A stretch of 64,000 bases of DNA from Bacteroidota bacterium (GCA_035518715.1 DATIXJ010000017.1:420-64419), one strand, 5' to 3'. Positions 5,565 through 53,855 are shown, numbered from the stretch's first letter. Numbers and translations: made by a program. The notes: generated by a model not told the origin, from the letters alone.

Positions 5565-5599
5565 GATTGAATTTCAATGAGGAGATGGAGAGGACATTC

Positions 5600-20741: not shown

Positions 20742-21315
20742 CTGCCAGCAAACTGCGTTTGATATACTGGACGGCGCCGTAGAGATTATCCGCAACATAA
20801 TCAGGAGAACTCCCTTCGGTCTCACAAAGTTCCTGCTCTTTCTTTCCGTAACCGGTGAGGACAAGAATGCACCGTGCACCCGCTGCAGAACCCATCTGCA
20901 TATCGAGGAGGCGGTCGCCCACGACGAATAATTGATCCGGATCAAGGTCGAATTCATGAATTGCCCTGGTCATCATTCCGATATTGGGTTTACGGCAGTC
21001 GCAGACGGCCCGATAGGGAGGTGTACCAAACTCCGGATGGTGCGGACAATAATAGATGGCATCGATCGCCGCGCCGTGCGCGTGGAGTTCATGTTCGAGT
21101 TTCGAGTGAATTTCTGCAAGTTGTGCTTCGGTGAGATACCCGCGGGCGATTCCTGATTGATTCGTTACCACGAACACGCGCCATCTCTGCTGATTGAGCT
21201 CCCTGATGGCGGGTGCCGAACCTTCGATCAGATGAAATTCCTCCGTAGAGCGGACGAAATCCACTTCTTCATTGATCGTGCCGTCCCGATCGAGAAAAAT
21301 CCCCACATGACCCAT
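20722..21315 (-). CDS. gmhB: D-glycero-beta-D-manno-heptose-1,7-bisphosphate 7-phosphatase (HAD-IIIA)
   Basis: GIFLDRDGTINEE (DxD nucleophile motif), VVTNQSGIARGY, the Zn-loop YYCPHHPE...CDCRKP, and VVGDRLLD are present. Confidence 0.8.
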   Translation of the reverse strand: MGHVGIFLDRDGTINEEVDFVRSTEEFHLIEGSAPAIRELNQQRWRVFVVTNQSGIARGYLTEAQLAEIHSKLEHELHAHGAAIDAIYYCPHHPEFGTPPYRAVCDCRKPNIGMMTRAIHEFDLDPDQLFVVGDRLLDMQMGSAAGARCILVLTGYGKKEQELCETEGSSPDYVADNLYGAVQYIKRSLLADASPAV

Positions 21316-23060: not shown

Positions 23061-26000
23061 ATGATCCGTAAGATTAACAAATTGAACTCTGACGTCCCGA
23101 CCGCGGGTGCATTCCGTCTTCCACTAGCACATGGATTTGTAGATAGTGGCAACCGGATACCCGTTCTCATTCTAGGCGCTCTTGTGGTCTGTGTTCTGTT
23201 TGGACCTTCGCTCTCACACGCCGCAGGAACAGAGGCCGGAGACGTTCATCTGATTCAATCGGATGGCTCGGGATGCGTAATAGAATACACTCCGGTCTAC
23301 CATGCCGAAAGAGTGAAACTGCAGAACGGGCCGGCTACTCTCCGGTTTCGCGTTGATGGCGGAATTCCCCTTAACCGACAGATGCCTGGTGCGCCGCAAT
23401 TCTTTCAACGCTCGATACTCCTCCGGTTCAGGGGCAGCAAGGGAAATTCCGTCCAGGTGATCAGGACCGAGTATGAGGATTCATCGAATGTTCTCCTGGC
23501 GCCGGTTCCCGGATTTCAGGAAGGCGGGATGGATCCTCAGCCGACGTACACCATGAACGCGGCTGAATATTCCCGGACCGGCATGATGCCCGATCAGCTT
23601 GTTTCACTTTCCGCCGTGGGAGAATCCCGCGGCGTGTATCTTGGTCATGTTGAAGTTGCTCCGTATGAATATAATCCGGCGCTCCGCGTTCTGCGGAGAT
23701 TCAAAAGCATCGTTGTGCGCGTGACATTCGGCCCATCCGAGCCGGCTCGCAGCGCCCGGATGACCACTGCCCGGCTTGCGGTCAACGATCAGACCGTTTC
23801 AGGTTTGCAGCCCGCCCCTGCACCGGCAAGGGTCACGCTCCTGAACAGCGTCCTGAGTTCCGGAACCTGGTACCGCATCCCGATTACAACCGAAGGGATG
23901 TACAAGATCACGGGTCAGGCACTCCTTAACGCTGGGGTTCCTTCATCAACCGATCCGAAAACCATCAAGATCTATGGCAATGGCGGAGCAGAGACACCGC
24001 TGTCACCCACATCGGTTGCCGTGGATGATCTCCTCCCCAACGCGGATTACGTTTACGACGGCGGAACTTCGGGAAAACTCGACGCGTCTGACTATGTAAT
24101 TTTCTATGGAACTCCCACCAACAGCTGGACCTATGACCCGGTTACAAAAACGTATTCCCACCACATCAACCGGTTCAGCGAGACGAACTACTGCTGGCTG
24201 ACGTTCGGCGGATCTCCGGCGAAATCGATGACGGTCGTGCCGTCACTCAATGATCCCGCGGCGTTTGCTCCGCCTACCGGTACCGCAAAACTTTTCCGTG
24301 AGGATGAAAACGAAAATATTCTCGCTTCGGGCCTCAACTGGCTCGGACAGGTCTTCAATACCGGAGATCAGATCACGTACGTCCATCAGCTTCCGGGAGT
24401 TGATGTCACGCAGCCGATTTTTTACAGATTTGATATCGGTGCTCAATCAAACGGATCCTCACAATTCTCGGTTCAGGAACATTCCACCACGATCACAACG
24501 GTTTCGCTTCCAGGAACCTACACGACCGGTGACTCCTATTATATTTCCTCACAGTTTATCAATCGCATAGTTCCGGTTTCGATCGCTCCCAATCAGATCA
24601 ACGGGTTCACCGACGCGCAAAGTCGTCTCCGCTTCCTTTTTTCCTCTACGAGCTCTGCGGGGGTGGGGTATATTGACTGGTATGAAGTGGCGTATAATCG
24701 TTTTCTCTTCGCGCAAAACGATGTCGTCAATTTTTCATCGTACGACACAACGGCAACGATCCAATACCGCGTCCACGGTTTCAGCGGAGGACCGGTAATG
24801 ATATTTGATGTCTCCCGGTTCGACAGCGTGGTCATGATTTCGAACCCCCAGATTGTCGCCGATACGGCCACGTTTCAGATCCAGCAAACGGCGCGGAATC
24901 CGAGGCAGTTGTTTGTGGTCGGACCTGGCGGCTTCCGATCTCCCGGAAGTCTCACCCGCGTGGAGAATCAGAATCTCCACGGGACCGATCCAGGTGCGGC
25001 GTACATTATTGTCACCGAAAGCGATTTTCTTTCAGCAGCTCAGCGCTTGCAGACGTATCGTCAGCAGACGAGCCCAAATCCAATCTCAACTGTTGTCGTC
25101 GATGTCAACCAGATTTACAATGAATTCAGCGGCGGACTTCTGACACCTGTTGCAATCCGGAATTATCTCCGGTATGCATATCAGAACTGGGCACAACCTC
25201 CGAAGTATGTGCTGCTCTTTGGCGACGGGGATTATGACTACCGGCGGATTATTGCGACGGGGCCGGAATGGGTGCCGCCGTGGGAAACGGAGGAATCGTT
25301 CATTCCGCTGAATACCTATTCGAGCGATGACCAGTTCGTCATCTTCAATTCGGCGGACCTTGTGGGGATGGGTATCGGCCGGCTGCCCGCGCGGTCGGGT
25401 TCAGATGCCGATGCGATGGTGAGCAAGATCATTCAATATGAAACGCATGCAGTTGCCGACGACTGGAAATCGCGCTTTACATTCGTGGCGGATGACGGAC
25501 CGGCCGGCCTCAGCAGTTCGGGTGTCATCGATGACGGGTTCCTCCATACCTCGGAGGCGGAAGCAGTCTCAACCCTTGTTCCCGGTCTCTTCGATAAAGT
25601 GAAGATTTACGAATGGGCGTACCCGACGATCGAGGCAGCCGGAGGAAGGCGGAAACCTGACGTCAATGCGGCGATCGATAATCAAATCAACCAGGGAACG
25701 CTCGTGCTCAATTACACGGGACACGGAAATCCTCATCTCTGGGCGGATGAGCATGTCTTTACCGTTGAAGGGGATTTTGCGCTTCTCCACAACACGGCGA
25801 AATATTTTTTCCTCGTTGCTGCCACATGTAATTTTTCGAACTTTGATGCAATTACGCCGCAAAGCGGAGGCGAGCAGCTCGTTGAAATGCCCTCTGCAGG
25901 TGCGATCGGGGTCTTCTCTGCAACGAGGCCGGTTTATGCATTCGAAAATTTTGCACTGAACCAGTCACTCTACAATAAAATGCTTGCAGCCGATTCCATC

Positions 26001-27197
26001 GGCCGCGTGATCCCGCAGCGGCTCGGAGACATTGACTACGAAACCAAGCTTGAACGTAATGATGTGAATGACGCGAAATACTTCCTTCTCGGTGACCCCG
26101 GACTTACGCTTGCTTTTCCCAAGCTCTACGCCTCGATCGACAGTGTGAATCATCTCCCGGGAAATCAGGTGGTCCAGTTGAAAGCGCTCGAACAGTCGAC
26201 CGTGTCGGCACATGTCCGTGATACGTCACAAGCATTTTCCAACGCATTCAACGGAACCGCCGAAGTCGTGGTCTATGATGCAAGTTACGGCGTTACACTG
26301 ACCGACCCTGATCCGGAGGTCATTCCGAACACCTTCACGTATGTCGCGGCGGGCACCCCGCTCTTCCGCGGCCAGGCGAGCGTAACGGCGGGCGCGATGA
26401 ACGTGAGTTTTGTCGTTCCGAAAGATATTTCGTATTCCAGCAACAATGGACGAATCTCGCTCTATTTTTCGAATCCTCTGACCGACGGCTACGGTTACAC
26501 GACGAATATCGTAATCAACGGAACCGATTCAACTGCTGCGCCGGATGGGGTTGGACCGCAGGTGCGTCTCTTTCTCGATAACCGCGGATTCCGGTCGGGA
26601 GATGTCGTTGGAGGATCGCCGACGCTGATTGCAGATCTCTTCGATTCGAGCGGCATCAATACGTCAACATCCGGAGTCGGTCACGGAATCGAAGTCTGGC
26701 TCGACAATCAATCACAAAGCATCGATGTGAGCAGTTATTACAAGAGCAAGACCGACACGTATCGCGAAGGCACGGTTGACTATCCTCTCGGTGCGATTGG
26801 TGAAGGTTCCCATAAGCTCCGCTTCCGGGCATGGGATACCTACGATAATTCCACGACAACGGAAACCGTCTTCGATGTTCTCACCGGTGTCGGCATGCAG
26901 CTGACATCTGTATTCAATTTCCCGAACCCGATGTCGAGCTCGACGCTCTTCACGTTCCAGCACAATCAGGTGTCGATCATCGATGCGGAAGTGAGGATCT
27001 ATACTGTCGCCGGACGGCTGATACGTGATATGAAGAAGAACGGCATCACTACCCAATTTGTCCAAATTCCTTGGGACGGGAGGGATAAGGAAGGCGATGC
27101 GATTGCCAATGGAGTCTATCTCTATAAAGTAAGTGCCAGGACGGAAGATGGACGATTCTCGAGCGAGGCGTTTGGAAAGCTCAGCGTTTTGAAATGA
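23061..27197 (+). CDS. porU: T9SS C-terminal-signal peptidase / sortase PorU (peptidase C25 family)
   Basis: 1378 aa. Gingipain-type catalytic dyad context: NYTGHGN (His codon 25722-25724) and VAATCNFS (Cys codon 25827-25829). Type-A T9SS C-terminal domain at 26913-27194 (FNFPNPMSSSTLFTF...IYTVAGRLI...WDGRDKEGDAIANGVYLYKV...GKLSVLK). porV lies immediately downstream. Confidence 0.85.
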   Translation: MIRKINKLNSDVPTAGAFRLPLAHGFVDSGNRIPVLILGALVVCVLFGPSLSHAAGTEAGDVHLIQSDGSGCVIEYTPVYHAERVKLQNGPATLRFRVDGGIPLNRQMPGAPQFFQRSILLRFRGSKGNSVQVIRTEYEDSSNVLLAPVPGFQEGGMDPQPTYTMNAAEYSRTGMMPDQLVSLSAVGESRGVYLGHVEVAPYEYNPALRVLRRFKSIVVRVTFGPSEPARSARMTTARLAVNDQTVSGLQPAPAPARVTLLNSVLSSGTWYRIPITTEGMYKITGQALLNAGVPSSTDPKTIKIYGNGGAETPLSPTSVAVDDLLPNADYVYDGGTSGKLDASDYVIFYGTPTNSWTYDPVTKTYSHHINRFSETNYCWLTFGGSPAKSMTVVPSLNDPAAFAPPTGTAKLFREDENENILASGLNWLGQVFNTGDQITYVHQLPGVDVTQPIFYRFDIGAQSNGSSQFSVQEHSTTITTVSLPGTYTTGDSYYISSQFINRIVPVSIAPNQINGFTDAQSRLRFLFSSTSSAGVGYIDWYEVAYNRFLFAQNDVVNFSSYDTTATIQYRVHGFSGGPVMIFDVSRFDSVVMISNPQIVADTATFQIQQTARNPRQLFVVGPGGFRSPGSLTRVENQNLHGTDPGAAYIIVTESDFLSAAQRLQTYRQQTSPNPISTVVVDVNQIYNEFSGGLLTPVAIRNYLRYAYQNWAQPPKYVLLFGDGDYDYRRIIATGPEWVPPWETEESFIPLNTYSSDDQFVIFNSADLVGMGIGRLPARSGSDADAMVSKIIQYETHAVADDWKSRFTFVADDGPAGLSSSGVIDDGFLHTSEAEAVSTLVPGLFDKVKIYEWAYPTIEAAGGRRKPDVNAAIDNQINQGTLVLNYTGHGNPHLWADEHVFTVEGDFALLHNTAKYFFLVAATCNFSNFDAITPQSGGEQLVEMPSAGAIGVFSATRPVYAFENFALNQSLYNKMLAADSIGRVIPQRLGDIDYETKLERNDVNDAKYFLLGDPGLTLAFPKLYASIDSVNHLPGNQVVQLKALEQSTVSAHVRDTSQAFSNAFNGTAEVVVYDASYGVTLTDPDPEVIPNTFTYVAAGTPLFRGQASVTAGAMNVSFVVPKDISYSSNNGRISLYFSNPLTDGYGYTTNIVINGTDSTAAPDGVGPQVRLFLDNRGFRSGDVVGGSPTLIADLFDSSGINTSTSGVGHGIEVWLDNQSQSIDVSSYYKSKTDTYREGTVDYPLGAIGEGSHKLRFRAWDTYDNSTTTETVFDVLTGVGMQLTSVFNFPNPMSSSTLFTFQHNQVSIIDAEVRIYTVAGRLIRDMKKNGITTQFVQIPWDGRDKEGDAIANGVYLYKVSARTEDGRFSSEAFGKLSVLK

Positions 27198-27308: not shown

Positions 27309-28448
27309 ATGAACTCAAAAGTGGTAGGGAGGTTTCTCCCCTTTTTCATCGTGGCACTCGGAATTATCGGGGTGTTGTTGCCGAGTTCCCAAGTTCTGGC
27401 ACAGGGGGAATCAGCCGTCCCCTTCCTGCTGATTGCACCCAATGCCCGTGCCGACGGGATGGGGGAAGCCGGGGGTGCCCTTGCCGATGACGGATCTGCC
27501 GGATACTGGAATCCTGCGGGACTCGCGTTCCAAAATGGTCAGGAAATCAGTCTCACACACTCGAACTGGCTTCCGCAGTTTCAGCTCTCCGATCTCTTTT
27601 ACGAATATCTTTCGTACAAGAATCATCTCGACGACTGGGGTGGAACGATGTCGGCGAGCATTATCTATCTGAGTCTCGGTGAATTCAATATCACCGGTGA
27701 AGTCGGGCCCGAGATTCTCGGAACGTTTAAAGCGTACGAAGTCTCGGCAACGGTGGGATATGCGTGGAAGCTCAACGAAGAACTCGGACTCGGTTTCAAC
27801 ATGCGCTATATCCGCAGTTCGCTTGCCGATTTTAATGTTCAGCAACAGGATAGAAAAGGTATTGCCTCGGGCGTGAGCTTCGACGTTTCCACACTCTGGA
27901 AGCCGAGCAGCATTCTCGATGATCGTCTCAGCGTCGGCGTGGATCTTTCCAACCTCGGACCGAAGTTGACGTATATCGATGCCGATCAGGCGGATCCTCT
28001 CCCGACGGATCTGAGACTTGCTTTTGCCGGGAAGGTCGTCCGGTCGGAATTCAATAATCTCACACTCATCGTGGATTTTACACGTCTCCTTGTCCGGCGC
28101 CATGCCGCACCCGTCGATTCTCTCGGAAACGTGGGCGAAGCTCCGCCTCCCGACAATCTTCCCAAGTCGCTGATCACGGCCTGGAGCGATGGCGGGTTGA
28201 GGAAAGTTCAGATTGCCACAGGTTTTGAATACTGGTACGGCGCTCCCAAACTCTTCGCCATCCGTATGGGATATTTCTACGAGGATCCCAGCTACGGCAA
28301 CAGGAAGTTCCTCACCTTCGGTGCCGGCATCCGTTACGATGTGTACGGATTTGATTTCAGCTACCTCTCTGCGGTTGATGAGACCAGCCCCCTGGCGGAG
28401 ACCTTACGCTTTAGTCTTTCAATTGCCTGGGGCGGCAAGCAGGACTAA
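27309..28448 (+). CDS. porV: T9SS outer-membrane shuttle protein PorV (LptO)
   Basis: 379 aa with a signal peptide. GESAVPFLLIAPNARADGMGEAGGALADDGSAGYWNPAGLAF is the characteristic PorV N-terminal motif. FadL-like barrel. Conserved porU-porV synteny. Confidence 0.8.
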   Translation: MNSKVVGRFLPFFIVALGIIGVLLPSSQVLAQGESAVPFLLIAPNARADGMGEAGGALADDGSAGYWNPAGLAFQNGQEISLTHSNWLPQFQLSDLFYEYLSYKNHLDDWGGTMSASIIYLSLGEFNITGEVGPEILGTFKAYEVSATVGYAWKLNEELGLGFNMRYIRSSLADFNVQQQDRKGIASGVSFDVSTLWKPSSILDDRLSVGVDLSNLGPKLTYIDADQADPLPTDLRLAFAGKVVRSEFNNLTLIVDFTRLLVRRHAAPVDSLGNVGEAPPPDNLPKSLITAWSDGGLRKVQIATGFEYWYGAPKLFAIRMGYFYEDPSYGNRKFLTFGAGIRYDVYGFDFSYLSAVDETSPLAETLRFSLSIAWGGKQD

Positions 28449-28533: not shown

Positions 28534-31500
28534 ATGAGCATGAGCATCCCAACGTCATTTACCCTTGCTGATATTCGTGTTACGAGAGCGATCCTGATCG
28601 TCCTCCTTGCGTTCGTTCCGTTGAGGGCCTTCTCCGGCCCGCCGGAAACCCGCGTCGTATTTGGACACCCTCTCAATTCAGCTCCGCAGCAGATCCGGCC
28701 CCGCATTGGTGCTCAGGTCTTTCCGGAAACAACGCATGTTCTTGCGGTGATGACGGATTTCGTGCAGGACAAGGACGATCGCACAACCGGAACGGGAAGC
28801 TTCGATCTTTCCGCGGCAACGAACGTCATTGATCCCACTCCTCATAACAAGGCATATTTTGATCAGCATGCCGCGTTTCTTCAGAACTATTTCCGGAAGT
28901 CTTCCGATGGCCGGTGCATTGTCGAAGTGACGGTCCTCGACAGTGTCTACCACCTTTCCCATAAGATGCGCTATTACAGTCCTTCGCCGAAAAGTCCCGA
29001 CAACCGCGAAATCGGATTGATGATGCAGGAGACCTGGCATCTCGTCGATTCGCTCAACCCGGGTTTTCCGTTTCGTCAGTATGATGTTTTTCTGATATTT
29101 CATGCCGGAGCGGGGAGAGATATCGACTTCGTCAGCATCTATGGATATGATCCGACACCGTTCGACATTCCCTCGATTTATGTCGGTCCTGCTGCGCTGA
29201 AGAAGATGTTCGGAAGCGCGTATGATGGTATTTCCGTGGGAAATGGTCTGGACACCATACGTAATTCTCTCATCATTCCGGAAACCGAAAGCCGCCCGCT
29301 CAGCGGAGGGGCAGGGACTTCGCTGCTTCAGCTTGGGATCAACGGACTTCTCGCAGCGACCTTCGGGAGCTCTCTCGGACTTCCCGATCTTTTTGATACA
29401 AAATCCGGAGCCAGTGGCATCGGGCGTTTCGGATTGATGGACGGTCAGTCGATTTTCAGCTGGAGCGGGATTTTTCCTCCACAGCCATCGGCATGGGAAC
29501 GCTATTTTCTCGGGTGGTCGACTCCGATCACCGTGAGCGCATTCGATTCTGTCTATACGTTTCCCGCGAGCAGTCTCCCCGGAGCCGAGGATTCACTGTT
29601 TCGTGTTCCGATCAGTGCGAGAGAATACTTTCTTGTTGAAAACCGCTGCCGCGATGCGCATGGTGACGGCGCAATCATCACACTTGTCCGCGACGGATCG
29701 ACCATAACGAAGACGTATCCTCGGGATTTTGATCCCGGTTTCAATTTCTCGAGCCAGGACTCCCTCTACGGTGTAGTTACCGATGTCGATGAATTTGACT
29801 GGAGTCTGCCCGGCTTCAGTCCGACCGGATCAGAAATGGCAAACGGCGGACTCCTCATCTGGCACATCGACGAAAATGTCATCGATGCGTCGATTGAGAC
29901 GGATGCCGTCAATGCCAACCCCATTGATCGCGGCGTCAATCTGCTGGAAGCGGACGGATCTCAGGATATCGGCCAAACCTACGATCTGCTCTCTCCGGGT
30001 TTTGGAAGCGAGAACGGAACCTCGATTGATTTCTGGTATGGAGATAACTCCGCACCGGCAAGGCGGATATCGAATGTCTTCTCGCCGACTTCGCTGCCGA
30101 GCAGCCGGAGCAATAATCAGGCGAATACACACATTGTGATTTCCGGATTTTCCCTCCGCGGCCCGTACATGACTGCCCGGATTCAGCTGGGAGACAATGT
30201 CGTTAGTCCGATTCCCGGGTTTCCGAAATATACCGGCATGAAGTTCGGCAGAAATTCGGTGACTATAATAAACGACAAGCCAACACCGGATTCGACTTCA
30301 CTCGTCGTTGCCACCGATGTCGTCGGCGTACAGCTGCCCGCCACTCCCACGGGATTGCCGATAAGCAGTGTCGGTGAATCGAAGCTCTACGGCTGGCACA
30401 TTGCCGGCGGGACTCCGCTCCTCACGACCGGAAGCGCCGACGGCCTTCTTGTGACCTCCGGGAATGCCTCTCGCGCATTTGTCGGTAAGCCCGTGGAGGG
30501 TAATCTCGCACAGAACGGTACTGCAGACTTGGCAATTGGGATGGTGGATAATGCAGTCTTTCTGCCCCCGGCTACTCCGCTCCAGAGCGCGAACACCGGC
30601 TGGGGTCTGCAGGATCTGAACAGCGACGGGAAAGCAGATTCACTCTTTGCCACGAAAACGTTCCGCAGGATCACAACCTCTCCGGTTCTATCGGATTCTT
30701 TTGTGGTTTATGGTGCGGAGCATGGGACGGTCTATATCTTTCGGTACGATGGCACCTTATCAGACAGCGTGACCAGTTCGCAGGATACCTCCGGGGTTGT
30801 CGGGATTTGCCTCGAGCCGAACCCTGCGGGAACATTTGTTGCAGTAACCATAAACGGTTCGTTCATCCAGAGTCCGGGACGAGGGTGTGTTCGAACAACC
30901 ATCACCGCGGGTTCTCCATTCCGCTCGGCGCTGCAACAAGGGTTGTCGCCGGCGGTGCTTGGAAGAACTCCGCCGTATAACCTGCGAACCGTCATGGTCT
31001 CGCCGGCGGGGATGGTCTACGATTTCAATGAGTGTCTGGGAATTGAAATGGGGTTCCCGGTGTCGACGGATGGAACAATTTCCAACGCCCCCGCAATTGC
31101 AGATATCGACGGTGATGGAAGCCCTGATATCATAGTGGCGAGCGGCAAGAAGATCTATGCGATCAACAATGCCGGCGCGGTTCTCGACAATTTTCCGGTT
31201 ACGCTGCCGACGTATCAAAATATCCTGAGCTCTCCAATTGTTGCTGATGTCGAAGGGAACGGCAGTGTTGATATTGTGGCGGTGACTCAGGAAGGTCTGG
31301 TCGTTGCGTACAATCGTTTCGGGAAAATGATCAACGGATTTCCGCTGCAGGGAGGTATCAACGGCGGTTCGACTCCTGCGGCGTTTCTCTTCAGGTCAAC
31401 CCAATGTCAGGGCTGCGAGGCAGCGATCGGTATTGCCGTTGCGTCGGACGACGGAAATGTGTATGCCTGGCAGACAGGAACGGTTGCATCGCTTGCAACC

Positions 31501-31884
31501 CCTGTGAAGATGCCCTGGCCGCAATATCTCCACGATGCTCAGAACAGCAGTATAGGAGATCCGGTTTCGGGAGGATCACTTCCCGCATCCGATTTCTTCC
31601 CGGCCTCCCGTGCGTACAACTGGCCGAACCCTGTCGGGAAGGAGCAGGCATTCAAGACTCACATCCGGTATTACGTCGGGACAGATGCACAGGTCCATAT
31701 CAAGATTTATGATCTGGCCGGAGAGATGGTGACGCAATTCGACGGCCCCGGTACGGGCGGCAGGGATAACGAGGTCGAGTGGGACGTTTCCGGGATTCAG
31801 AGCGGTGTCTATTTTGCACATATCGACGCGCAGGGATCCGGAGGAACCGGCAACGCCATCATCAAGATTGCGGTGGTGAAGTGA
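28534..31884 (+). CDS. Secreted M6-like pseudo-metallopeptidase with FG-GAP repeats and a T9SS C-terminal sorting domain
   Basis: 1116 aa with a signal peptide. M6 (immune inhibitor A)-type scaffold: VLAVMTDFVQDKDD, AATFGSSLGLPDLFDT in place of AHEFGHxLGLPDEYDT (29353-29400), and LLIWHIDENV. FG-GAP-like repeats: ADIDGDGSPDIIVASG, ADVEGNGSVDIVAVT, LNSDGKADSLF. Type-A CTD at 31615-31881 (YNWPNPVGKE...IKIYDLAGEMV...SGVYFAHI...IKIAVVK). Confidence 0.7.
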   Translation: MSMSIPTSFTLADIRVTRAILIVLLAFVPLRAFSGPPETRVVFGHPLNSAPQQIRPRIGAQVFPETTHVLAVMTDFVQDKDDRTTGTGSFDLSAATNVIDPTPHNKAYFDQHAAFLQNYFRKSSDGRCIVEVTVLDSVYHLSHKMRYYSPSPKSPDNREIGLMMQETWHLVDSLNPGFPFRQYDVFLIFHAGAGRDIDFVSIYGYDPTPFDIPSIYVGPAALKKMFGSAYDGISVGNGLDTIRNSLIIPETESRPLSGGAGTSLLQLGINGLLAATFGSSLGLPDLFDTKSGASGIGRFGLMDGQSIFSWSGIFPPQPSAWERYFLGWSTPITVSAFDSVYTFPASSLPGAEDSLFRVPISAREYFLVENRCRDAHGDGAIITLVRDGSTITKTYPRDFDPGFNFSSQDSLYGVVTDVDEFDWSLPGFSPTGSEMANGGLLIWHIDENVIDASIETDAVNANPIDRGVNLLEADGSQDIGQTYDLLSPGFGSENGTSIDFWYGDNSAPARRISNVFSPTSLPSSRSNNQANTHIVISGFSLRGPYMTARIQLGDNVVSPIPGFPKYTGMKFGRNSVTIINDKPTPDSTSLVVATDVVGVQLPATPTGLPISSVGESKLYGWHIAGGTPLLTTGSADGLLVTSGNASRAFVGKPVEGNLAQNGTADLAIGMVDNAVFLPPATPLQSANTGWGLQDLNSDGKADSLFATKTFRRITTSPVLSDSFVVYGAEHGTVYIFRYDGTLSDSVTSSQDTSGVVGICLEPNPAGTFVAVTINGSFIQSPGRGCVRTTITAGSPFRSALQQGLSPAVLGRTPPYNLRTVMVSPAGMVYDFNECLGIEMGFPVSTDGTISNAPAIADIDGDGSPDIIVASGKKIYAINNAGAVLDNFPVTLPTYQNILSSPIVADVEGNGSVDIVAVTQEGLVVAYNRFGKMINGFPLQGGINGGSTPAAFLFRSTQCQGCEAAIGIAVASDDGNVYAWQTGTVASLATPVKMPWPQYLHDAQNSSIGDPVSGGSLPASDFFPASRAYNWPNPVGKEQAFKTHIRYYVGTDAQVHIKIYDLAGEMVTQFDGPGTGGRDNEVEWDVSGIQSGVYFAHIDAQGSGGTGNAIIKIAVVK

Positions 31885-31887
31885 GGT

Positions 31888-32547
31888 GTGGCATTGCGTT
31901 TCGTCATCGTCATGCTCTTCGGCTTTGTTGTCCTTTCGTGCCGCGATGTGCAACCTCTGCCGGTATCGACTCCGGTATCCGGTTATCAGCTGAACGGCAT
32001 ACTCACGACTTCCAACAGCATCCCCATTTCCGGCGCTCAGGTGATCCTCTATTATAACTATATTCCGGTCGATTACGGACCGGTTGATTCCATCCAGGTC
32101 GTTGTTCGCGATACCAGCGTGACCGTCGATGTGTCAGTCGTAACAACGGGATACGATTTTGTAGTGACATTATTCCACGGGCACCGGAGTGCCGGACCGC
32201 TTCCGCCGTATTTCTGGAACGGGACCGACGCGCGCGGAGCTCTGCGGCCGAGCGGTAAGTATCTCATCCGGTATTCTCTGGGAAGCACGATCGTGAAATA
32301 CTCCACCTTCATTCTGGAGGGGACTCCGACGGCAACGACCGATGTGAATGGTCTTTTTACCATCACCGATGATCATTTTCCTATCGGTGAAGTGTTTGAT
32401 GTATATAACGATGACGGCTCCTATTACGGAACGCTTGAGCTCATACCGAATGTTGCACTGCAGTTCCAATATGGAAGCCATGCATCGGTTTTCCCGTCCG
32501 TCGACCTCACTCCCGATTACATCACCTTCGGTGCATTTACACTCTGA
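31888..32547 (+). CDS. Hypothetical lipoprotein (CarboxypepD_reg-like / FlgD-Ig-like segments)
   Basis: 219 aa, GTG start 3 nt after the upstream stop. FGFVVLSCRD is a lipobox. YQLNGILTTSNSIPISGAQVILY resembles a carboxypeptidase-regulatory-like fold, and YFWNGTDARGALRPSGKYLIRY resembles an FlgD-Ig-like motif. Confidence 0.45.
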   Translation: MALRFVIVMLFGFVVLSCRDVQPLPVSTPVSGYQLNGILTTSNSIPISGAQVILYYNYIPVDYGPVDSIQVVVRDTSVTVDVSVVTTGYDFVVTLFHGHRSAGPLPPYFWNGTDARGALRPSGKYLIRYSLGSTIVKYSTFILEGTPTATTDVNGLFTITDDHFPIGEVFDVYNDDGSYYGTLELIPNVALQFQYGSHASVFPSVDLTPDYITFGAFTL

Positions 32548-32553: not shown

Positions 32554-35500
32554 ATGATGATGCGTCGCTTCTGGGTTCTCACAGTTCTTCTTCCGGTTCT
32601 CTCACTCGTTGCGTATGCTCAGGACGATTTCTTCCATCCGGAACTCGACTGGCGGACCATCGAGACCGAGCATTTTTCCGTCCACTATCATACCGGGGCG
32701 GAGCGAACTGCACGAGTCGTGGCGAAGGTCGCGGAAGATATTTACGAGCCGGTGACTTCACTCTACCATCATAAGCCCGATGGGAAGGTGAATTTTGTGA
32801 TCAAGGACGTTGACGACTACTCAAACGGCGGTGCGTACTTTTTTGATAACAAGATCGAGATCTGGGCGTCGGCGCTCGATTTTGATCTTCGCGGCACGCA
32901 CAACTGGCTCCGGAATGTCGTCACCCACGAGTTCACGCACATTGTCCAGATCCAGACTTCGTTGAAATTCGGGCGCAAAGTTCCGGCATTGTATTTTCAA
33001 TGGCTCCAGTATGAGTCGGAGCGCCGGACGGATGTCCTCTACGGTTTTCCCAACGGCATCGTCTCGTATCCGTTTTCGGGATATGTTGTCCCAAGCTGGT
33101 TTGCAGAAGGAGTGGCGCAGTATAATCGGAAAGAGCTCGGCTACGACACATGGGATTCACACCGTGATATGATTCTCCGGATGTATGCGCTCGACAGTAC
33201 GCTCCTTTCATGGAACGAGATGGCGGTCTTCGGCAAGACAAGCCTGGGGAACGAATCGTCGTACAATGCGGGCTTTTCGATCGTACGGTATATCGGTCAG
33301 CATTACGGAGATGACAAGCTCGAGGAAATCTCGAGGAACCTCTCGTCGCTCACAGCCGTCACGATCGACGGGGCGATTGAAAAAGCGATCGGCAAGAGCG
33401 GAAGCGATCTCTACGACGAGTGGAAGAATGCTCTCATGAAAGATTATGCAGAGCGGACGGCGGGAATGAGGAGCTCACTTGCCCAGGGCGAGATTGTCGG
33501 GGGCATCGGCTTTGGAAACTTCTATCCAACCTTCTCGCCAGACGGAAAAGCGTTCGCCTACGTCAGCAACAAGCACGCGGATTATTTCGGGCTGTCTTCT
33601 CTCTATCTGTACGATATGCCAACGAAGAAAGAGAAAATGTTGAAATCAGGGGTCCGTTCCACGCTTTCCTGGTCGCCCGACGGTACCAAGCTGTTCTACT
33701 CGAAACTCAGTCGTGATAACAGCCACTGGTCGAACCTCTTCGATGTATATGTCTATGATATATCCCGCGACGAAGAAAAACGTCTGACATTCGGTGCGCG
33801 TGCCAACTCACCGGCAATCTCTCCGGACGGAAAGACGGTGGTCTATGTGGCGGGAAGCGACGGTACGCTGAATCTCTTCGCCATGAATTCCGACGGATCC
33901 AACATCCGCCAGCTCACGAAGTATGCGAACGGCGAGCAGGTCTATAATCCGAAATGGTCTCCCGACGGATCGACGGTGATTTTCGATTATTCGTTTCTCG
34001 ACGGGCGGGATATTGCGACGGTGCCTGCCGCCGGCGGCGAAGTGACGATGCTTCTTGCCACTCCCGACGATGAACGAAATGCCGTCTACACTCCGGACGG
34101 CACACATATCATTTATGCTTCCGACAAAACCGGTGTCTTCAATATTTATCAATATGATCTTCATTCGAAAGAATCCGAGCAGTTGACGAATGTTCTCGGT
34201 GGTGCGTTCATGCCATCGGTCAATGCGAGCGGCTCACTCGCATTCGCAACCTATACGTCCAGCGGATACAAAATTGCCCTGATCGATTCGATGCGCTCAC
34301 TTTCCCATCCGGTACCCTATCTCCGAAATTCCGGAAATGAAAGCGCCGACACCGCCGCGCTTGCCTCGGCAAAGAGCGCAGCCCCGACCCAGCAGTTCGA
34401 CTGGGCGTCCCTCAGGTCGTATGACGACACGAAGCTGGTTCCGCTCAGGGATACAACATACAAAACTGTTGCAACCGACCTGACGTTTGTTCCGCTTCTC
34501 CGTGTCGACAACTACAATCCGCGCAACAAAGGTATCGATGAAGTCAAGTTAGGCCTGTTTGCGTTCTCGTATGACATGCTAGACCAGTACGGCTTTAACC
34601 TCGGAGCAGCGATCAATAAGGGCGGTGAGCGCGATCTGTTTCTCTCGTTCGATTATCGCGGCAAGATACCGGGACTCTTTCAGCTTGGACTCGAACCCGC
34701 TTTATCCTTCGAGGCATATAACATCACGCGCAATGCCGACAGCTTTGTGGCCCTTCCGACCGATACCATCGGAGTCGGGGTCTGGTACAATTTCCTCGAG
34801 TTCGATCTCGCGCTCAAGCAGAAAATTATCAATGAAGCAACCGATCTTGAGATTCGTTATGCGCACAGCCGGTATACTGCATCGATCGATGCATTCTCAC
34901 TTCCTGCAACCGGTCAGCTTGTGCCTGCATTCAGTGAGCTCTATCTCATCGGCAACGATCTCTCTCTGACGCTGAATATTGAAGCGCTGGTTCCATCGAG
35001 AACATCCGAGATCAACCCGGTCGGAAGAAAAATCCGGGTACGGTATGATTATGAGGCAAACAAATTCAACCCGACGGGCCAATATGCCGTCGACCCGGCA
35101 AGCGGGCTTCTTCTTCCCGAATACGAACAGATCAATATGCACCGTCTGGAATTGAGCTGGCGGGAATCGCAGGAACTGCCCGGATGGACACACACGCTCT
35201 CCGGTCAGCTCCGCGGCGGGACGATATTCGGTCCGCCGGTAGACGATTTTTTTGATTTCTACATCGGGGGGCTCGAGGGGATGAAGGGCTATCCGTTCTA
35301 TTCACTCGGCGGAAACGAATATGTGTACGGAAATCTGACGTACCGGTTTCCGGTCGACGAGCATCTTGATTTTCGTGTGCTGCAGTTGTACTTTGACAAG
35401 CTCTATGCGGCATTCTACGGCGACGTCGGCGATGCCTGGTCGGGCGGAGGACTGGAAGGGCGCAACTACAAACGGGATGCAGGCATGGAGTTACGGCTGG

Positions 35501-35661
35501 AGGCATTTTCCTATTATGCTTTCCCGACGAGAATATTTTTCAATGCGACGTACGGATTCGATCAGTTCACGCACTACGTTCAGAGTACCAATACGACCGT
35601 TACCTATGGCAAGGACTGGAACTTCCATTTCGGTGTTCTGTTCGGATTCGATCTCGATTAA
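32554..35661 (+). CDS. Outer-membrane fusion protein: MA-type HExxH peptidase-like domain + PD40 (TolB-like) beta-propeller repeats + Omp85-type beta-barrel
   Basis: 1035 aa with a signal peptide (VLLPVLSLVAYAQD). HEFTH lies at 32926-32940, with WFAEGVAQY about 55 residues downstream. At least five PD40-like repeats: FSPDGKAFAYVS, WSPDGTKLFYS, ISPDGKTVVYVAGSDGTLNLF, WSPDGSTVIF, YTPDGTHIIYASDKTGVFNIY. The C-terminal roughly 380 aa carry Omp85/Bac_surface_Ag-like motifs: IGGLEGMKGYPFYSLGGNEYVYGNLTYRFPV, FYGDVGDAWS, AGMELRLEAF...RIFFNATYG. Confidence 0.7.
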   Translation: MMMRRFWVLTVLLPVLSLVAYAQDDFFHPELDWRTIETEHFSVHYHTGAERTARVVAKVAEDIYEPVTSLYHHKPDGKVNFVIKDVDDYSNGGAYFFDNKIEIWASALDFDLRGTHNWLRNVVTHEFTHIVQIQTSLKFGRKVPALYFQWLQYESERRTDVLYGFPNGIVSYPFSGYVVPSWFAEGVAQYNRKELGYDTWDSHRDMILRMYALDSTLLSWNEMAVFGKTSLGNESSYNAGFSIVRYIGQHYGDDKLEEISRNLSSLTAVTIDGAIEKAIGKSGSDLYDEWKNALMKDYAERTAGMRSSLAQGEIVGGIGFGNFYPTFSPDGKAFAYVSNKHADYFGLSSLYLYDMPTKKEKMLKSGVRSTLSWSPDGTKLFYSKLSRDNSHWSNLFDVYVYDISRDEEKRLTFGARANSPAISPDGKTVVYVAGSDGTLNLFAMNSDGSNIRQLTKYANGEQVYNPKWSPDGSTVIFDYSFLDGRDIATVPAAGGEVTMLLATPDDERNAVYTPDGTHIIYASDKTGVFNIYQYDLHSKESEQLTNVLGGAFMPSVNASGSLAFATYTSSGYKIALIDSMRSLSHPVPYLRNSGNESADTAALASAKSAAPTQQFDWASLRSYDDTKLVPLRDTTYKTVATDLTFVPLLRVDNYNPRNKGIDEVKLGLFAFSYDMLDQYGFNLGAAINKGGERDLFLSFDYRGKIPGLFQLGLEPALSFEAYNITRNADSFVALPTDTIGVGVWYNFLEFDLALKQKIINEATDLEIRYAHSRYTASIDAFSLPATGQLVPAFSELYLIGNDLSLTLNIEALVPSRTSEINPVGRKIRVRYDYEANKFNPTGQYAVDPASGLLLPEYEQINMHRLELSWRESQELPGWTHTLSGQLRGGTIFGPPVDDFFDFYIGGLEGMKGYPFYSLGGNEYVYGNLTYRFPVDEHLDFRVLQLYFDKLYAAFYGDVGDAWSGGGLEGRNYKRDAGMELRLEAFSYYAFPTRIFFNATYGFDQFTHYVQSTNTTVTYGKDWNFHFGVLFGFDLD

Positions 35662-35674: not shown

Positions 35675-36646
35675 ATGAAAATTCCCGCGTGCTGTCTCAT
35701 CGCATCGTTGTTCCTCATTTCCCGGGCATTCTGCGGCGACGACGGATCAGTCCATCTTACGGGGAACCGTCACATTGATTTTTTCGGAACTCCGGCACAG
35801 CAGCTCGCATTTTCGTCTCCGGGGTCCCTGGCACTCGATGTCCTCTCGGCGTCGAATGAGGAAGTGGGAACCCGCAGATCGCCCTGGCTTGCAGGTGCCA
35901 TGTCTCTCGCCGTCCCGGGGTCCGGCGAAATTTATTCACAGCAATATCTTCGCGGTGCCCTGTTCATTGCCGCGGAAGCGGCTTCGTGGTTCTTCCACAT
36001 TTCCTACGGCAAGAAGGGAGACAATCAGGAAGTTCTGTTCGAGAGTTACGCCAACGCACACTACAGTGTCGTTCGCTATACCAACTGGACACTGAATCAT
36101 CTCGCCATCCTGTCGTCGAACGGAAGTCTTCCCTATAGCGAGTCCCAGTATGCCCAGCTCATTTACGGTACGACGACCCTCCCGGACCCGAGTAAAGTAC
36201 CCCCGCCGTTCAGCGACGTCCACTGGGATGAACTCAATGCCATGGAATCCGATATCGGCAGTGTTCCGGGAAGCGGATACTCTCACCAGCTCCCATTCTA
36301 CAATACTCAGCAGTATTATGAACTGATCGGAAAGTATAACGAATTCAGCCGCGGCTGGGATGATGCGAACCCTTCAGATCCTCGTGATCAGATTGTCCCA
36401 CTGGTGAGCACGTCGAACGAAATGTTCATTTATCACGACATGCGCGCGCAGGCGAACAACTATTACGACGTCGCGACGACCTTTGCGAGTGTGATCGTGG
36501 CAAACCATATTCTGAGTGCGATCGACGCGTTCTGGGCGGCAACGCAATACAACAGCTCGCTTCATGCCGATATTCACATCAACATGCAGCCGAGTCCGCA
36601 GGGATATGTCCCCGTGACGGAGGCGGTCCTTCAATACGATTTTTAG
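35675..36646 (+). CDS. Hypothetical membrane protein (DUF5683-like helical hairpin), last gene of the porU operon
   Basis: I prefer the ATG at 35675 (MKIPACCLIASLFLISRAFCGDD, signal-like) over the track start at 35366, which lies inside the upstream gene. Hydrophobic pair SPWLAGAMSLAVPGSGEIYSQQYLRGALFIAAEAASWFF plus a C-terminal hydrophobic helix. Confidence 0.5.
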   Translation: MKIPACCLIASLFLISRAFCGDDGSVHLTGNRHIDFFGTPAQQLAFSSPGSLALDVLSASNEEVGTRRSPWLAGAMSLAVPGSGEIYSQQYLRGALFIAAEAASWFFHISYGKKGDNQEVLFESYANAHYSVVRYTNWTLNHLAILSSNGSLPYSESQYAQLIYGTTTLPDPSKVPPPFSDVHWDELNAMESDIGSVPGSGYSHQLPFYNTQQYYELIGKYNEFSRGWDDANPSDPRDQIVPLVSTSNEMFIYHDMRAQANNYYDVATTFASVIVANHILSAIDAFWAATQYNSSLHADIHINMQPSPQGYVPVTEAVLQYDF

Positions 36647-36770: not shown

Positions 36771-37856
36771 TTACTTCGGAACGCGCAGGAGTGTGTAAAT
36801 TCCTGCCGCGAGAAAGAGGATGTTCGCCAGCCATGCCGTGAGGAGCGGATCAAGATCCCCGTTATAACCGAACGCCTGGCTGATCTGCAGAAAAATGATG
36901 TAGAGGAAACAAATGCCGATTGCGATGGCGAACTCGATCCCGAGCCCGCTCCGGCGCTTCACGGATGAGAACGGCACGCCGAATAGGACGACGATAACGC
37001 TGGCAAACGGGAAGGCGATCTTGCCATAGAAATCGACGAGCCACCTGGACACCTCATGTCCCGCACGCTGCTGGTTGTCGATGAACTGCTTCAGGTCTGT
37101 ATAGTCCATTTCTTCCGGTTTTTCCTGCTTCTTCCGTATATCCTCCGGTGAAAAATTCAGCTTGCCGATCGAAAGGAAGGGGAATTTCGTAATGGTCTCG
37201 TGTTCACCCTGAAAGGTCCGCTCGACTCCGTTGATCAGCTTCCACGTATTCAGCACCGGGTTCCATTCCATCTGATCCGCATCGTACCGGTCAACGAGTC
37301 GTGTGGGATTGAGGGAATCAAAATCCTGTATGCTTACCTGGAGTGCCATGTTCCGTGGTTCATCAAATAACCCGATCGACAGGATGCGCGTTCGTGAATC
37401 CTGTATGAAGATGTTGTTCCGCGAGACATACTCGATATCTTTTTGAAAATAGATGCGTCCGATCTCGTACTTCTTCTTGTTCGCAAACGGAACGACCCAG
37501 CCGTTGAAATAGATCGATCCCAAACTTACCAGCAGTGCAAATATGAGGAGGGGAGCCATGAACCGGTATAGGGAGACGCCGCCGGATTTCAACGCGCTCA
37601 GCTCGTTGTATGTGGAGAGGCGTCCCGTGGTGAACAATGCCGACATGAGCATCGCCATCGGTATCATCAGTTTGATAATTTCCGGAATGAAGTAGAGGTA
37701 ATACGTGGCGATCATTCCCACCGAGGCATGCTTGTCGAGAAAGTCATCGAGATTGTCCATCATGTTCACGGCGACGAAGATGATGGTGAAGATGACCAGC
37801 GAATAGACCATGGTCATGACGAACTGCCGGAGGACGTATCGATCGATCCTGGTCAT
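36771..37856 (-). CDS. LPS export ABC permease, LptF/LptG family
   Basis: MTRIDRYVLRQFVMT matches the YjgP/YjgQ N-terminal signature; ATG = complement of 37854-37856, just after the upstream stop at 37861. Six TM segments with a large periplasmic loop. Confidence 0.8.
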   Translation of the reverse strand: MTRIDRYVLRQFVMTMVYSLVIFTIIFVAVNMMDNLDDFLDKHASVGMIATYYLYFIPEIIKLMIPMAMLMSALFTTGRLSTYNELSALKSGGVSLYRFMAPLLIFALLVSLGSIYFNGWVVPFANKKKYEIGRIYFQKDIEYVSRNNIFIQDSRTRILSIGLFDEPRNMALQVSIQDFDSLNPTRLVDRYDADQMEWNPVLNTWKLINGVERTFQGEHETITKFPFLSIGKLNFSPEDIRKKQEKPEEMDYTDLKQFIDNQQRAGHEVSRWLVDFYGKIAFPFASVIVVLFGVPFSSVKRRSGLGIEFAIAIGICFLYIIFLQISQAFGYNGDLDPLLTAWLANILFLAAGIYTLLRVPK

Positions 37857-37860
37857 GGGG

Positions 37861-39246
37861 TCATACTGTCGTCTGCGCGTTTCCTTCCGGCGGTCTGAGC
37901 CATTTCGGAAGGAATTTCCTGAAGAATGCCCATGGTATGGTTGGGGTTTCACGTCCCATCCGTATTGTCAGATACAACCCGAGAACGCTGAGGAAGATGT
38001 TCGCCGCCCACATGCCGAACCAGGGGCTGATGTATCCGCGGTCGGCGAGTTTTTCTCCGCCGATCAGCGATGCCCAGTAAATGACGAAGAAGCCAAGACT
38101 AAGCGAAGCCGCGACGCCGAAAGTGCCGCGTCGGGCGACAATCCCAAGCGGTGCTCCGATGAACACGAAGACGAGGCATGCCGCCGGTATGGAATATTTC
38201 TTGTTGATCTCGACAAGATACGAATCGATTCGCTTCTGATTATAATCGATGAACGAAAGTCCGTTGTTGATCGTTGCCTGCATCATGCGCTCGGTAGCGA
38301 GCGCCATACCGATTGCCCGGAGCCGCGTCGTCGGGGCGGTCTGGAGCGAGTGGGGGATCCGCGGATCGAACAACATGTTTCCGACGATCGGCGATGCTGA
38401 CTGGAAGATCTTCACACTTGCGTCGCGGTCCTGCTCTTCGAGGATACGGACACTGTCCTGCATTGCCTGTGCGCTCAGTTCCCGATCACCGCGATCGATG
38501 CTGTTTTCTCCCGTCCGCTCGAAGTCGAATCCTTCAGCACTCATGATGATCCGGTGGCGAGTGAAGTTCATCCTGCGGTACAAGTCCCTGTCGTGAACGC
38601 CGACTTGATGTATTTCGCCGTCGAAGAGATCCATGATGAGCTTACGGTAATCCGGTGTAAATGAAACTTTTCCGCGCTGGGCTGTGACTACGACGTCGGT
38701 CGTCGGATCGGTGTAATCATAAATCGTGACGCCTTCCAGATCGTTCGAATTCTCGAACGTCTTGCGGACGATAATGCTGTATCCCTGTATGTCCTGAGAA
38801 AAGAGCCCGGGCAGAAGCGTGAGCGTCGGCTTCGTGCGCCGAATATCGATCATGAGCACCTTGAACCGGTGGTTTGCTTCGGGAAGGACGTCATTGTTGA
38901 AGAGGAGGACGAGATACGTCACCGCAAGCGAAGCAAGAATCACGGGCGCCATCATGCGGTAGAGACTCACGCCGCTCGCCTTCATGCTGGTAATTTCATT
39001 TTGCGACGAGAGTTTTCCGAACGCCATAAGAGTGGCAACCAGGACCGCCATCGGTACCGCGAGAACGACCATCCATGATAGGCTTAACGCAAGAAGCTCC
39101 GCGATGACCCACGCACTAAGGCCTTTTCCGACAAGCTGATCGACCGCGCGCATGAGAAACTGGAGAAGAAAGATGAAAACCAGAGTCAGGAAGGAAAAAA
39201 AGAACGGGCCGACATGCGTCCGGAGGATGTAGAGAGACAGCTTCAT
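37861..39246 (-). CDS. LPS export ABC permease, LptF/LptG family
   Basis: MKLSLYILRTHVGPFFFSFLTLVFIFLLQFL is a YjgP/YjgQ-type N-terminus. 461 aa, adjacent to its paralogue. Confidence 0.8.
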   Translation of the reverse strand: MKLSLYILRTHVGPFFFSFLTLVFIFLLQFLMRAVDQLVGKGLSAWVIAELLALSLSWMVVLAVPMAVLVATLMAFGKLSSQNEITSMKASGVSLYRMMAPVILASLAVTYLVLLFNNDVLPEANHRFKVLMIDIRRTKPTLTLLPGLFSQDIQGYSIIVRKTFENSNDLEGVTIYDYTDPTTDVVVTAQRGKVSFTPDYRKLIMDLFDGEIHQVGVHDRDLYRRMNFTRHRIIMSAEGFDFERTGENSIDRGDRELSAQAMQDSVRILEEQDRDASVKIFQSASPIVGNMLFDPRIPHSLQTAPTTRLRAIGMALATERMMQATINNGLSFIDYNQKRIDSYLVEINKKYSIPAACLVFVFIGAPLGIVARRGTFGVAASLSLGFFVIYWASLIGGEKLADRGYISPWFGMWAANIFLSVLGLYLTIRMGRETPTIPWAFFRKFLPKWLRPPEGNAQTTV

Positions 39247-51940: not shown

Positions 51941-51964
51941 CAACCTGAAAGGACGCTACTCGCG

Positions 51965-53848: not shown

Positions 53849-53855
53849 CCGGGGC

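Follow-up and report, generated by a model that had tools for sequence, protein, structure and literature searches.

The stretch of DNA analyzed here (hereinafter, the window) consists of 64,000 nucleotides (nt) from a Bacteroidota bacterium (GCA_035518715.1, DATIXJ010000017.1:420-64419) and encodes, on the plus strand at positions 32554..35661, a protein of 1035 amino acids (aa; ATG start; hereinafter, the target) in which a zinc peptidase domain and a TolB-like β-propeller precede an Omp85-type outer-membrane barrel. We propose, as a reading that in our estimate has an even chance of being correct, that the target is an active, outer-membrane-anchored peptidase and a dedicated partner of PorV and of an M6-like inactivated metalloprotease (M6i) in a type IX secretion system (T9SS) module. 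The domain anatomy and the family assignment are close to certain; a functional link to the T9SS is fairly likely, judging from the conserved gene neighborhood. What appears to be new is the association of PorV, M6i and an Omp85-peptidase across phyla, of which we found no description in the literature searched.

Domain architecture of the target

A search for homologs of the target yielded 4175 sequences at E<=1e-5, with full-length orthologs at E=0, which rules out chance as the source of the features described below; the best 120 homologs are full-length and 52-100% identical to the target, and those that are named come from metagenome-assembled genomes (MAGs) of Ignavibacteria and Bacteroidota. 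Conservation was assessed in an alignment of 58 orthologs, with a per-residue conservation profile, and structure in two AlphaFold2 models, one of the full-length protein (mean predicted local distance difference test score, pLDDT, 79.5; predicted template modeling score, pTM, 0.75) and the other of the barrel only. The protein starts with a predicted signal peptide for Sec export (aa 1-22, MMMRRFWVLTVLLPVLSLVAYA; 32554-32619, plus strand), directly followed by Q23, which is invariant among the orthologs and fits the N-terminal glutamine rule of Bacteroidota.

The mature N-terminal portion (aa 23-308; 32620..33477, plus strand) is a gluzincin domain of the Peptidase MA type. It matches the Pfam family Peptidase_MA_2 with 38.0 bits (cutoff, 32.4), as do 44 of 44 orthologs with the same family, and a weak match to flagellinolysin in NCBIfam (aa 119-293) spans its HExxH motif. 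The zinc-binding and catalytic motif, HEFTH (H125, E126 and H129 in aa 125-129), lies at 32926..32940 on the plus strand, where an earlier note on this DNA had placed it; translation recovered the open reading frame (ORF) and all the other motifs quoted in that note in their places as well. The three zinc-site residues are invariant, and so are E185, in the segment WFAEGVAQY (33097..33123, plus strand; EGVAQY is aa 185-190), and the highly conserved β-hairpin insert (aa 140-180) that separates the HExxH helix from the helix carrying E185 (aa 181-190 in the model). We infer that E185, 55 residues past H129, is the third zinc ligand. HExxH and W[FY]AEG are each kept in 80 of 81 loci, and this N-terminal module shows the highest conservation in the entire protein (column identity, 75-89%). 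In the model, aa 26-308 form a mixed β/α domain with a β-rich start, followed by the active-site helix (aa 117-139), a secondary structure compatible with a thermolysin-like zincin. With the HExxH motif, the downstream glutamate and the match to a clan MA model all present, the module looks catalytically intact, as the earlier note had maintained.

The peptidase is followed by a six-bladed propeller of the TolB/PD40 type (aa 313-578; 33490..34287, plus strand), detected by Pfam as PD40 (E 7.7e-24, three significant stretches). The modeled domain contains ~24 strands in six four-stranded blades (pLDDT ~90), to which five SPDG-type repeats and one degenerate repeat correspond; a TolB-like propeller with at least five such repeats had been predicted previously and is borne out. 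TolB chains in the PDB match the target by sequence at E 3e-14, and the Foldseek search with the full-length model retrieved TolB first (E 1e-14), the other top matches being propellers of S9 peptidases and tricorn; precomputed Pfam matches to Tricorn_N and Tricorn_2nd were also present. Homologs in databases are usually labeled 'biopolymer transporter Tol' or 'PD40 domain-containing protein', and also 'tolB protein precursor'. Taken with the TolB-like propeller, these names would speak for the target being the TolB component of the Tol-Pal 'biopolymer transporter'; the target, however, contains an extra zincin and an Omp85 barrel and lacks a match to the TolB N-terminal domain, and its score with TIGR02800 (117.5 bits against a cutoff of 343) comes from propeller positions 194-320 of 418 only. 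With such a different architecture, we rejected the TolB assignment, which we regard as extremely improbable.

A linker of 65 aa (aa 579-643; 34288..34482, plus strand; conservation 0.19-0.43) connects the propeller to the barrel. It is predicted to be mostly coil, broken by no more than one short strand and two short helices and modeled with pLDDT <50 at aa 594-613, and includes a conserved FDWxxLRxYDD motif just ahead of barrel strand 1. No POTRA domain was found among the Pfam matches of the target, nor does POTRA figure in the per-member Pfam table of its orthologs, where 25 families are listed, and the modeled linker does not resemble one, which agrees with the earlier reading of the N-terminal region as not POTRA-like.

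The C-terminal portion (aa 644-1035; 34483..35658, plus strand) is predicted to form a 16-strand outer-membrane barrel of the Omp85 type. Sequence methods failed to place the barrel of the target itself, so a comparison of structures was needed, and because propeller matches swamped the full-length Foldseek search, the barrel was modeled on its own. Sixteen long strands are present at aa 644-1030 in both models. The 50 matches listed for the barrel-only model in the PDB all belong to the Omp85 superfamily, namely, BamA, TamA, Sam50 and Toc75 (E 1.2e-7 to 6.6e-5, probability 1.00, TM-score 0.45-0.58), and include BamA of Flavobacterium, Bacteroides, Porphyromonas and E. coli. Furthermore, five full-length orthologs that are 56-61% identical to the target pass the cutoff of the Pfam family PF01103 (24.7-38 bits against 24; best E 1.8e-9), with alignments at hidden Markov model (HMM) positions ~115-293, that is, the loop-6 half of the barrel; Omp85 homology of the target follows by transitivity. 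Thus, of the three Pfam families anticipated in the earlier note, PD40 and Peptidase_MA_2 match the target and PF01103 does not; the Omp85-type barrel itself, which the note had recognized from motifs, is confirmed by the two models, the uniform structural matches listed and the five orthologs.

Two signatures characterize BamA: a (V/I)RG(F/Y) motif in loop 6, which joins strands 11 and 12, and a motif of the FxDxG type on strand 13. In the model of the target, the motif GGLEGMKGYP (aa 905-914; 35266..35295, plus strand) occupies the loop between strands 11 and 12 (aa 893-921, flanked by strands 881-892 and 922-935), which we take to be equivalent to the BamA loop 6. Here, no variation was seen at G909, G912 and Y913, and at least 90% of the sequences have K911; the pattern G[ML][KR]GY, in which M-K-G-Y corresponds to aa 910-913 with K or R in the orthologs, is present in 63 of 81 loci. 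Further Omp85-like signature residues reside in YGDVGDAW on strand 13 and GMELRL on strand 14 (35416..35499, plus strand): Y-G-D-V-G (aa 955-959) maps to strand 13 of the model, D957 is invariant, and little or no variation is seen at W962, G977, E979 and R981. In the translation, NLTYRFPV is aa 927-934, GDVGDAWS is aa 956-963 and GMELRL is aa 977-982. The conservation of the barrel is below that of the peptidase.

At aa 978 (35485-35487), within the last of these motifs, G(M/V)ELRL, the window encodes Met, in place of which Val is found in P0001, a database protein with a listed identity of 100%; the copy in the window is therefore near-identical, not identical, to the deposited sequence.

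This combination of domains has been catalogued before. Heinz and Lithgow (2014, Front Microbiol 5:370, PMC4104836) defined a subfamily of WD40-like Omp85 proteins that consist of the same three parts, the aminopeptidase-like zincin being present in most members, and lack POTRA domains; Table S3 of that work includes ~100 proteins for which Phyre2 assigned the barrel to BamA (4k3b) or TamA (4c00), the propeller to TolB (2w8b), and a 'best aminopeptidase hit' to M1/M9 gluzincins with 98.7-99.6% confidence. No function was given beyond a speculative analogy to a BamA-BamB fusion, and T9SS, PorV or M6-like neighbors are not mentioned there; a later article restates the architecture as 'WD40 and peptidase domains' (PMC11358297). 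The target shows no architectural difference from this subfamily and is, with near certainty, a member; accordingly, the suggestion in the earlier note that the architecture is unusual is not supported. Going by UniProt prefixes, the published list presumably includes proteins of Ignavibacterium and Melioribacter (I0A... and I6Y/I6Z/I7A...) and Caldithrix (H1X...), and, we assume on the same basis, of Rhodothermus, Salinibacter, Cytophaga, Myxococcales, Vibrio and Geobacter.

Genomic context in the window and in Ignavibacteria-type loci

Judged by the families of the encoded proteins, the window is a T9SS supercluster. The first gene of the predicted operon encodes the T9SS sortase PorU (23061..27197, plus strand; NF033707, 937 bits), followed by the T9SS outer-membrane shuttle barrel PorV (27309..28448, plus strand; NF033709, 304 bits, and NF033710, 259 bits) and by M6i (28534..31884, plus strand; NF052323, 814 bits), which combines FG-GAP repeats with a C-terminal domain of T9SS type A (Por_Secre_tail). 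Next comes a small lipoprotein of 219 aa (31888..32547, plus strand) with the lipobox MALRFVIVMLFGFVVLSC (VLSC) and a weak FlgD_ig match, the gene for which begins 4 nt after the M6i stop codon and ends 6 nt before the start of the target. The placement of the target in a porU-porV operon beside an M6-like protein devoid of HExxH, which had been noticed from the sequence, is thus substantiated. Downstream, 14 nt past the stop codon of the target, starts the gene for a DUF5683-like secreted or membrane protein of 323 aa (35675..36646, plus strand) with a signal peptide, a weak match to DUF5683 and no match to any NCBIfam family. Then follow genes for LptF/LptG-type permeases on the opposite strand (36771-39246, minus strand), the SprA/Sov translocon (39550-46521, plus strand; TIGR04189, 981 bits) and the PorX response regulator (46607-48184, plus strand; NF052313, 711 bits). 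The equivalog score was reached here for neither PorZ nor PorQ.

A scan of species-representative genomes detected at least 599 relatives, and the best 80 loci (49-73% identity), nearly all labeled Ignavibacteria or Bacteroidota, were analyzed. Synteny on the upstream side was counted in the 62 loci with at least 9.5 kb of sequence there: PorV and M6i are each present in all 62 and PorU in 60, with the gene order and strand of the window, and the full operon was found in a Melioribacter roseus MAG. The lipoprotein is detectable in just 22 of the 62 loci and hence looks like a lineage-specific addition. LptF/G genes follow the target in 26 of 49 loci; with this frequency, and with none seen in the distant-clade contexts described below, adjacency of LptF/G and SprA was rejected as a defining feature.

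Neither HExxH nor HxxxH was found in M6i of the four lineages checked; therefore, among the two module proteins checked, the target and M6i, the target harbors the sole intact metallopeptidase site. Comparison of the target zincin with the M6i domain using hhalign gave a probability of 0.2%, that is, no detectable relation, so a recent duplication that produced an enzyme-pseudoenzyme pair is unsupported.

The barrel and these neighbors together bring up the possibility that the target is a BamA-like assembly factor, the lateral gate of which would insert T9SS components, such as PorV or SprA, a 36-strand barrel, or would export or anchor M6i in the manner of a two-partner system, with the propeller replacing POTRA/BamB as the substrate dock and the zincin acting as a BepA-like quality-control protease. 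The retained loop-6 (K/R)GY and strand 13/14 signatures, the structural matches to the insertases BamA, TamA and Sam50, and the proximity of SprA and LptF/G in the window are all consistent with such a role, and a gene for a large secreted protein next to that for the barrel recalls TpsA/TpsB, as does the lack of a detectable T9SS C-terminal domain in the M6i of Fibrobacterota. A function akin to a BamA-BamB fusion is also the one that Heinz and Lithgow proposed (PMC4104836). However, the target has no POTRA domain, which BamA, TamA and TpsB use for substrate handling; its peptidase is better conserved than its barrel; the linkage to SprA and LptF/G is limited to 26 of 49 loci and was not seen in the distant-clade contexts; and in Ignavibacteria and Calditrichota the T9SS C-terminal domain of M6i is a normal one. 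On balance, we consider this role unlikely.

Distribution of the module across phyla and contexts of paralogs

An exhaustive profile search produced 4695 cluster representatives at E<=1e-30, and genomic contexts were looked up for selected distant members. Where the N-terminus is covered, almost all of the distant representatives retain the HExxH and WxxEG motifs down to ~25% identity, with two classes of spacing between them, either 57 residues, as in the window, or ~46-50 residues. A member with 33% identity to the target is preceded by PorV and M6i and followed by a 344-aa protein; no PorU gene was called upstream of it, and its M6i scores 427 bits with NF052323, under the 600-bit cutoff of that family. 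At 29-30% identity, the target comes after PorV and an M6-like protein and before proteins of 341 and 258 aa and an epimerase, in this order; a second locus at this level of identity contains a truncated equivalent with a faint DUF5683 match downstream. A complete Calditrichota genome, likewise in the range of 29-33% identity, has PorV and then an FG-GAP protein that carries a T9SS C-terminal domain ahead of the target, and behind it a protein weakly matching DUF5683, one of 238 aa and an epimerase. Named relatives of the 29% member come from LCP-89, Ca. Electryonea, Zixibacteria, Latescibacteria, Marinimicrobia and Calditrichota, including Caldithrix abyssi.

At 27% identity, the arrangement extends to Fibrobacterota (Chitinivibrionia), including the cultured Chitinispirillum alkaliphilum, where a fused PorV-family barrel (3734-6142 in locus L083, 3802-6186 in L091 and 3830-6241 in L092) precedes an M6i-like protein and the target. 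The fusion consists in an N-terminal extension of ~490 aa with faint Reg_prop and weak PorZ matches; no T9SS C-terminal domain was detected in the M6i-like protein. A conserved gene of ~206 aa is located ahead of the fused PorV and M6i-like genes in these bacteria.

The proteins of 300-340 aa, each with a signal peptide, encoded directly downstream of the target in the window and in loci L001 (13110-14129), L082 (8731-9765), L088 (8333-9358) and L089 (5519-6415) show mutual homology in blastp (E 1e-11 to 1e-74), and a 309-aa protein with a weak DUF5683 match occupies the equivalent position in L093 (13307-14236). Given the same location and the homology, the DUF5683-like protein seems to belong to the module as its fourth conserved component. 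No PorU gene was seen next to the module in the contexts of L082, L088 and L093. Outside the Ignavibacteria-type loci, the module was thus met in Calditrichota, in Fibrobacterota and in a clade without classification. Over an identity range of 27-73% and at least three lineages of phylum rank, the order PorV-M6i-target persists, with genes that often overlap or nearly abut, and the flanking genes change completely. By this comparison of gene orders, the conserved core comprises PorV, M6i, the zincin-propeller-Omp85 protein and, usually, the DUF5683-like protein, with PorU an addition on the side of Ignavibacteria.

Other branches of the family occur in different surroundings. In locus L086 (4006-13812), a paralog with 25% identity directly follows a complete Opp-type oligopeptide ATP-binding cassette (ABC) transporter, and a gene for LptE starts at the last base of the paralog, which hints at peptide-uptake or lipopolysaccharide (LPS)-assembly roles for other branches of the family. 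Additional paralogs are found beside glycoside hydrolases. In the paralog clade with the shorter HExxH-to-WxxEG spacing, the upstream partners are proteins of ~350 aa (8956-9999 in L084 and 4214-5269 in L090) that share homology (E 1e-12) and could be assigned to no family of Pfam or NCBIfam. A 1348-aa relative, P0050 (68% identity over 58% of the query), has a precomputed match to a caspase family (PF00656) besides the zincin and PD40, and would represent a variant architecture.

The paralogs in contexts unrelated to the T9SS, one of them beside the oligopeptide transporter, along with the large size of the family (the 4695 representatives) and the occurrence of several copies per genome in some species (PMC4104836), would be compatible with a general envelope housekeeping or nutrient peptidase that degrades periplasmic peptides and owes its place in a T9SS operon to co-regulation only. 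The persistence of the PorV-M6i-target order across three or more lineages of phylum rank and down to 27% from 73% identity, against changing flanks, is difficult to reconcile with this explanation, which we deem quite improbable.

Proposed role of the target and its limits

The tight coupling to PorV and M6i across phyla makes a shared function likely. A division of labor in which one protein binds and the other cleaves, or a device for inserting and processing T9SS cargo or components, as put forward in the earlier note, may be forms of such a function. From the computed anatomy, motif conservation and synteny, we infer a topology, an enzymatic activity, a physical complex and a substrate, as follows. 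After cleavage of the signal peptide, the 16-strand barrel would anchor the target in the outer membrane, and the gluzincin and the propeller would most likely face the periplasm, since the usual topology of Omp85 proteins puts both termini of the barrel in that compartment. The propeller might dock a partner or, in the way of propeller-gated peptidases, admit only peptides or unfolded chains to the active site. Within this clade, we expect that the target would act as a dedicated subunit of an outer-membrane module that also includes PorV, M6i and the DUF5683-like protein and would supply the proteolytic activity of the module, a possible task being the clearing or trimming of T9SS-related polypeptides, for example, cleaved C-terminal signal domains or cargo stalled at the PorV shuttle.

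The opposite orientation would follow if the target exported itself like a type Vd or other autotransporter-like protein, with the barrel moving its own zincin and propeller to the surface, where they would act beside PorU and M6i on T9SS cargo. In PlpD and in autotransporters, too, the enzyme is N-terminal and the barrel is C-terminal. PlpD is discussed in the work that defined the subfamily (PMC4104836). With their T9SS C-terminal domains, the partners M6i and PorU should be located on the surface, and the low-complexity linker of 65 aa could span the lumen of the barrel. Self-export would nevertheless require ~560 residues, including a closed six-bladed propeller, to cross the barrel unfolded; PlpD has a POTRA domain and the target does not; nothing in the target points to a site of cleavage or release; and the N-terminal domains are periplasmic in the default Omp85 topology. 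We therefore regard surface exposure of this kind as a rather remote prospect.

Several lines of evidence also weigh against our own proposal of a periplasmic peptidase dedicated to the PorV/M6i module. The periplasmic topology is assumed, by analogy, from the Omp85 rule, and the expected surface location of M6i and PorU, given their T9SS C-terminal domains, is on the opposite side of the membrane; a conserved gene order falls short of proving that the products form a complex, be it physical or functional. A T9SS link for the entire family was rejected, with distant paralogs adjoining Opp/LptE, glycoside hydrolases or an unrelated 350-aa protein; from these contexts, the family as a whole is not T9SS-specific. 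Likewise, members of the WD40-like Omp85 subfamily are known from Proteobacteria as well (PMC4104836). At the level of sequence comparison, searching the zincin domain against PDB sequences returned only noise (E>1), with no relative detectable; the C-terminal 446 aa of the target alone match no Pfam family, PF01103 included, at E<=10; and the family profiles, full-length and barrel-only, retrieved from PDB sequences propellers or nothing, with no BamA. Literature searches brought up no experimental work on any member of the family.

More tentatively, PorV, M6i, the target and the DUF5683-like protein might constitute an unrecognized outer-membrane complex, possibly an alternative or ancestral T9SS module for cargo processing or attachment, in which the Omp85 barrel takes the place of a second barrel of the PorV/PorQ type as partner of the surface protein and contributes the sole active metallopeptidase. 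Such a complex would range over the Fibrobacterota-Chlorobiota-Bacteroidota group, represented here by Ignavibacteria, Calditrichota and Chitinivibrionia, and the named relatives extend to Zixibacteria, Latescibacteria and Marinimicrobia.

For over ten years, the WD40-like Omp85 subfamily has been on record with no function assigned, and the coupling of one of its clades to PorV and M6i offers a first functional handle on this POTRA-less class of Omp85 proteins. To our knowledge, the outer-membrane biology of the T9SS has been learned almost entirely from Porphyromonas and Flavobacterium; the coupling provides a candidate new accessory component of this system with an intact protease site, and thus a concrete hypothesis for both fields. 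Genetics appears feasible in culturable carriers, namely, Chitinispirillum alkaliphilum, which has the module, Caldithrix abyssi, which has a relative, and Melioribacter roseus, of which a MAG contains the full operon. Judging from the prefixes in the published list of the subfamily, Ignavibacterium album presumably carries the operon too. Should the coupling reflect co-regulation only, the target stays an ordinary member of a known, uncharacterized family.

Comparison with known systems

Our literature searches found nothing relevant that links this architecture to the T9SS, nor anything relevant on M6i, PorU2 or PorV2, and we know of no peptidase of this kind described as a T9SS component. 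With BamA and TamA, its top structural matches, the target shares the 16-strand fold, the loop-6 (K/R)GY and the strand 13/14 signatures; it differs from them in having an enzyme and a propeller instead of POTRA domains at the N-terminus, in a sequence too diverged for PF01103, and in the absence of genes for BAM-type partner lipoproteins adjoining it. PlpD, the patatin-like Omp85 protein of type Vd secretion, similarly joins an enzymatic N-terminal domain to a C-terminal Omp85 barrel, but has a POTRA domain and an exported, released lipase, whereas the target is a POTRA-less metallopeptidase, the export of which would be hypothetical.

For quality control, BepA is a plausible functional analogue: it combines a zinc HExxH peptidase with an interaction scaffold on the periplasmic side of an Omp85 barrel, as the target would. 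BepA, however, is a separate soluble M48 protein with TPR repeats, and the peptidase of the target belongs to Peptidase_MA_2, is fused to the barrel and comes with a propeller. Tricorn protease, prolyl oligopeptidase and DPP-IV (S9) resemble the target in placing a β-propeller beside a peptidase domain; those enzymes are soluble serine peptidases, and the propeller of the target is a putative gate.

The operon with PorU and PorV is reminiscent of the PorU-PorV-PorQ-PorZ attachment complex of Porphyromonas gingivalis. M6i, with β-propeller-type repeats, a C-terminal T9SS domain and a gene for an outer-membrane barrel as its partner, is comparable to PorZ; PorQ, in contrast to the target, is a PorV-like 14-strand barrel and not an Omp85 protein.

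Additional observations on the window

A scan for sigma-70 promoters and terminators gave nothing informative, as expected if the promoters are of the Bacteroidota type. On the minus strand upstream of the operon, a glycogen/starch synthase gene seems to be split (20722-22172) into a 285-aa ORF (21315-22172) and a 197-aa ORF (20722-21315) with a 1-nt overlap; the 285-aa ORF contains the Glyco_transf_5 domain only, and the equivalent in L001 is a single protein of 509 aa in which both domains are present. The gene may be truly split, or a frameshift or an error of sequencing may account for the two ORFs. Past the T9SS genes, at 51161-56876 on the plus strand, genes for a protein with a TonB/TolA-like C-terminal domain, a 627-aa protein with an outer-membrane barrel and an OmpA domain, and a 1006-aa TPR protein are found together; the TPR protein contains eight YbgF/CpoB-like stretches and has weak similarity to PorW and PorE, and these genes may comprise an envelope or Tol-Pal-like cluster.

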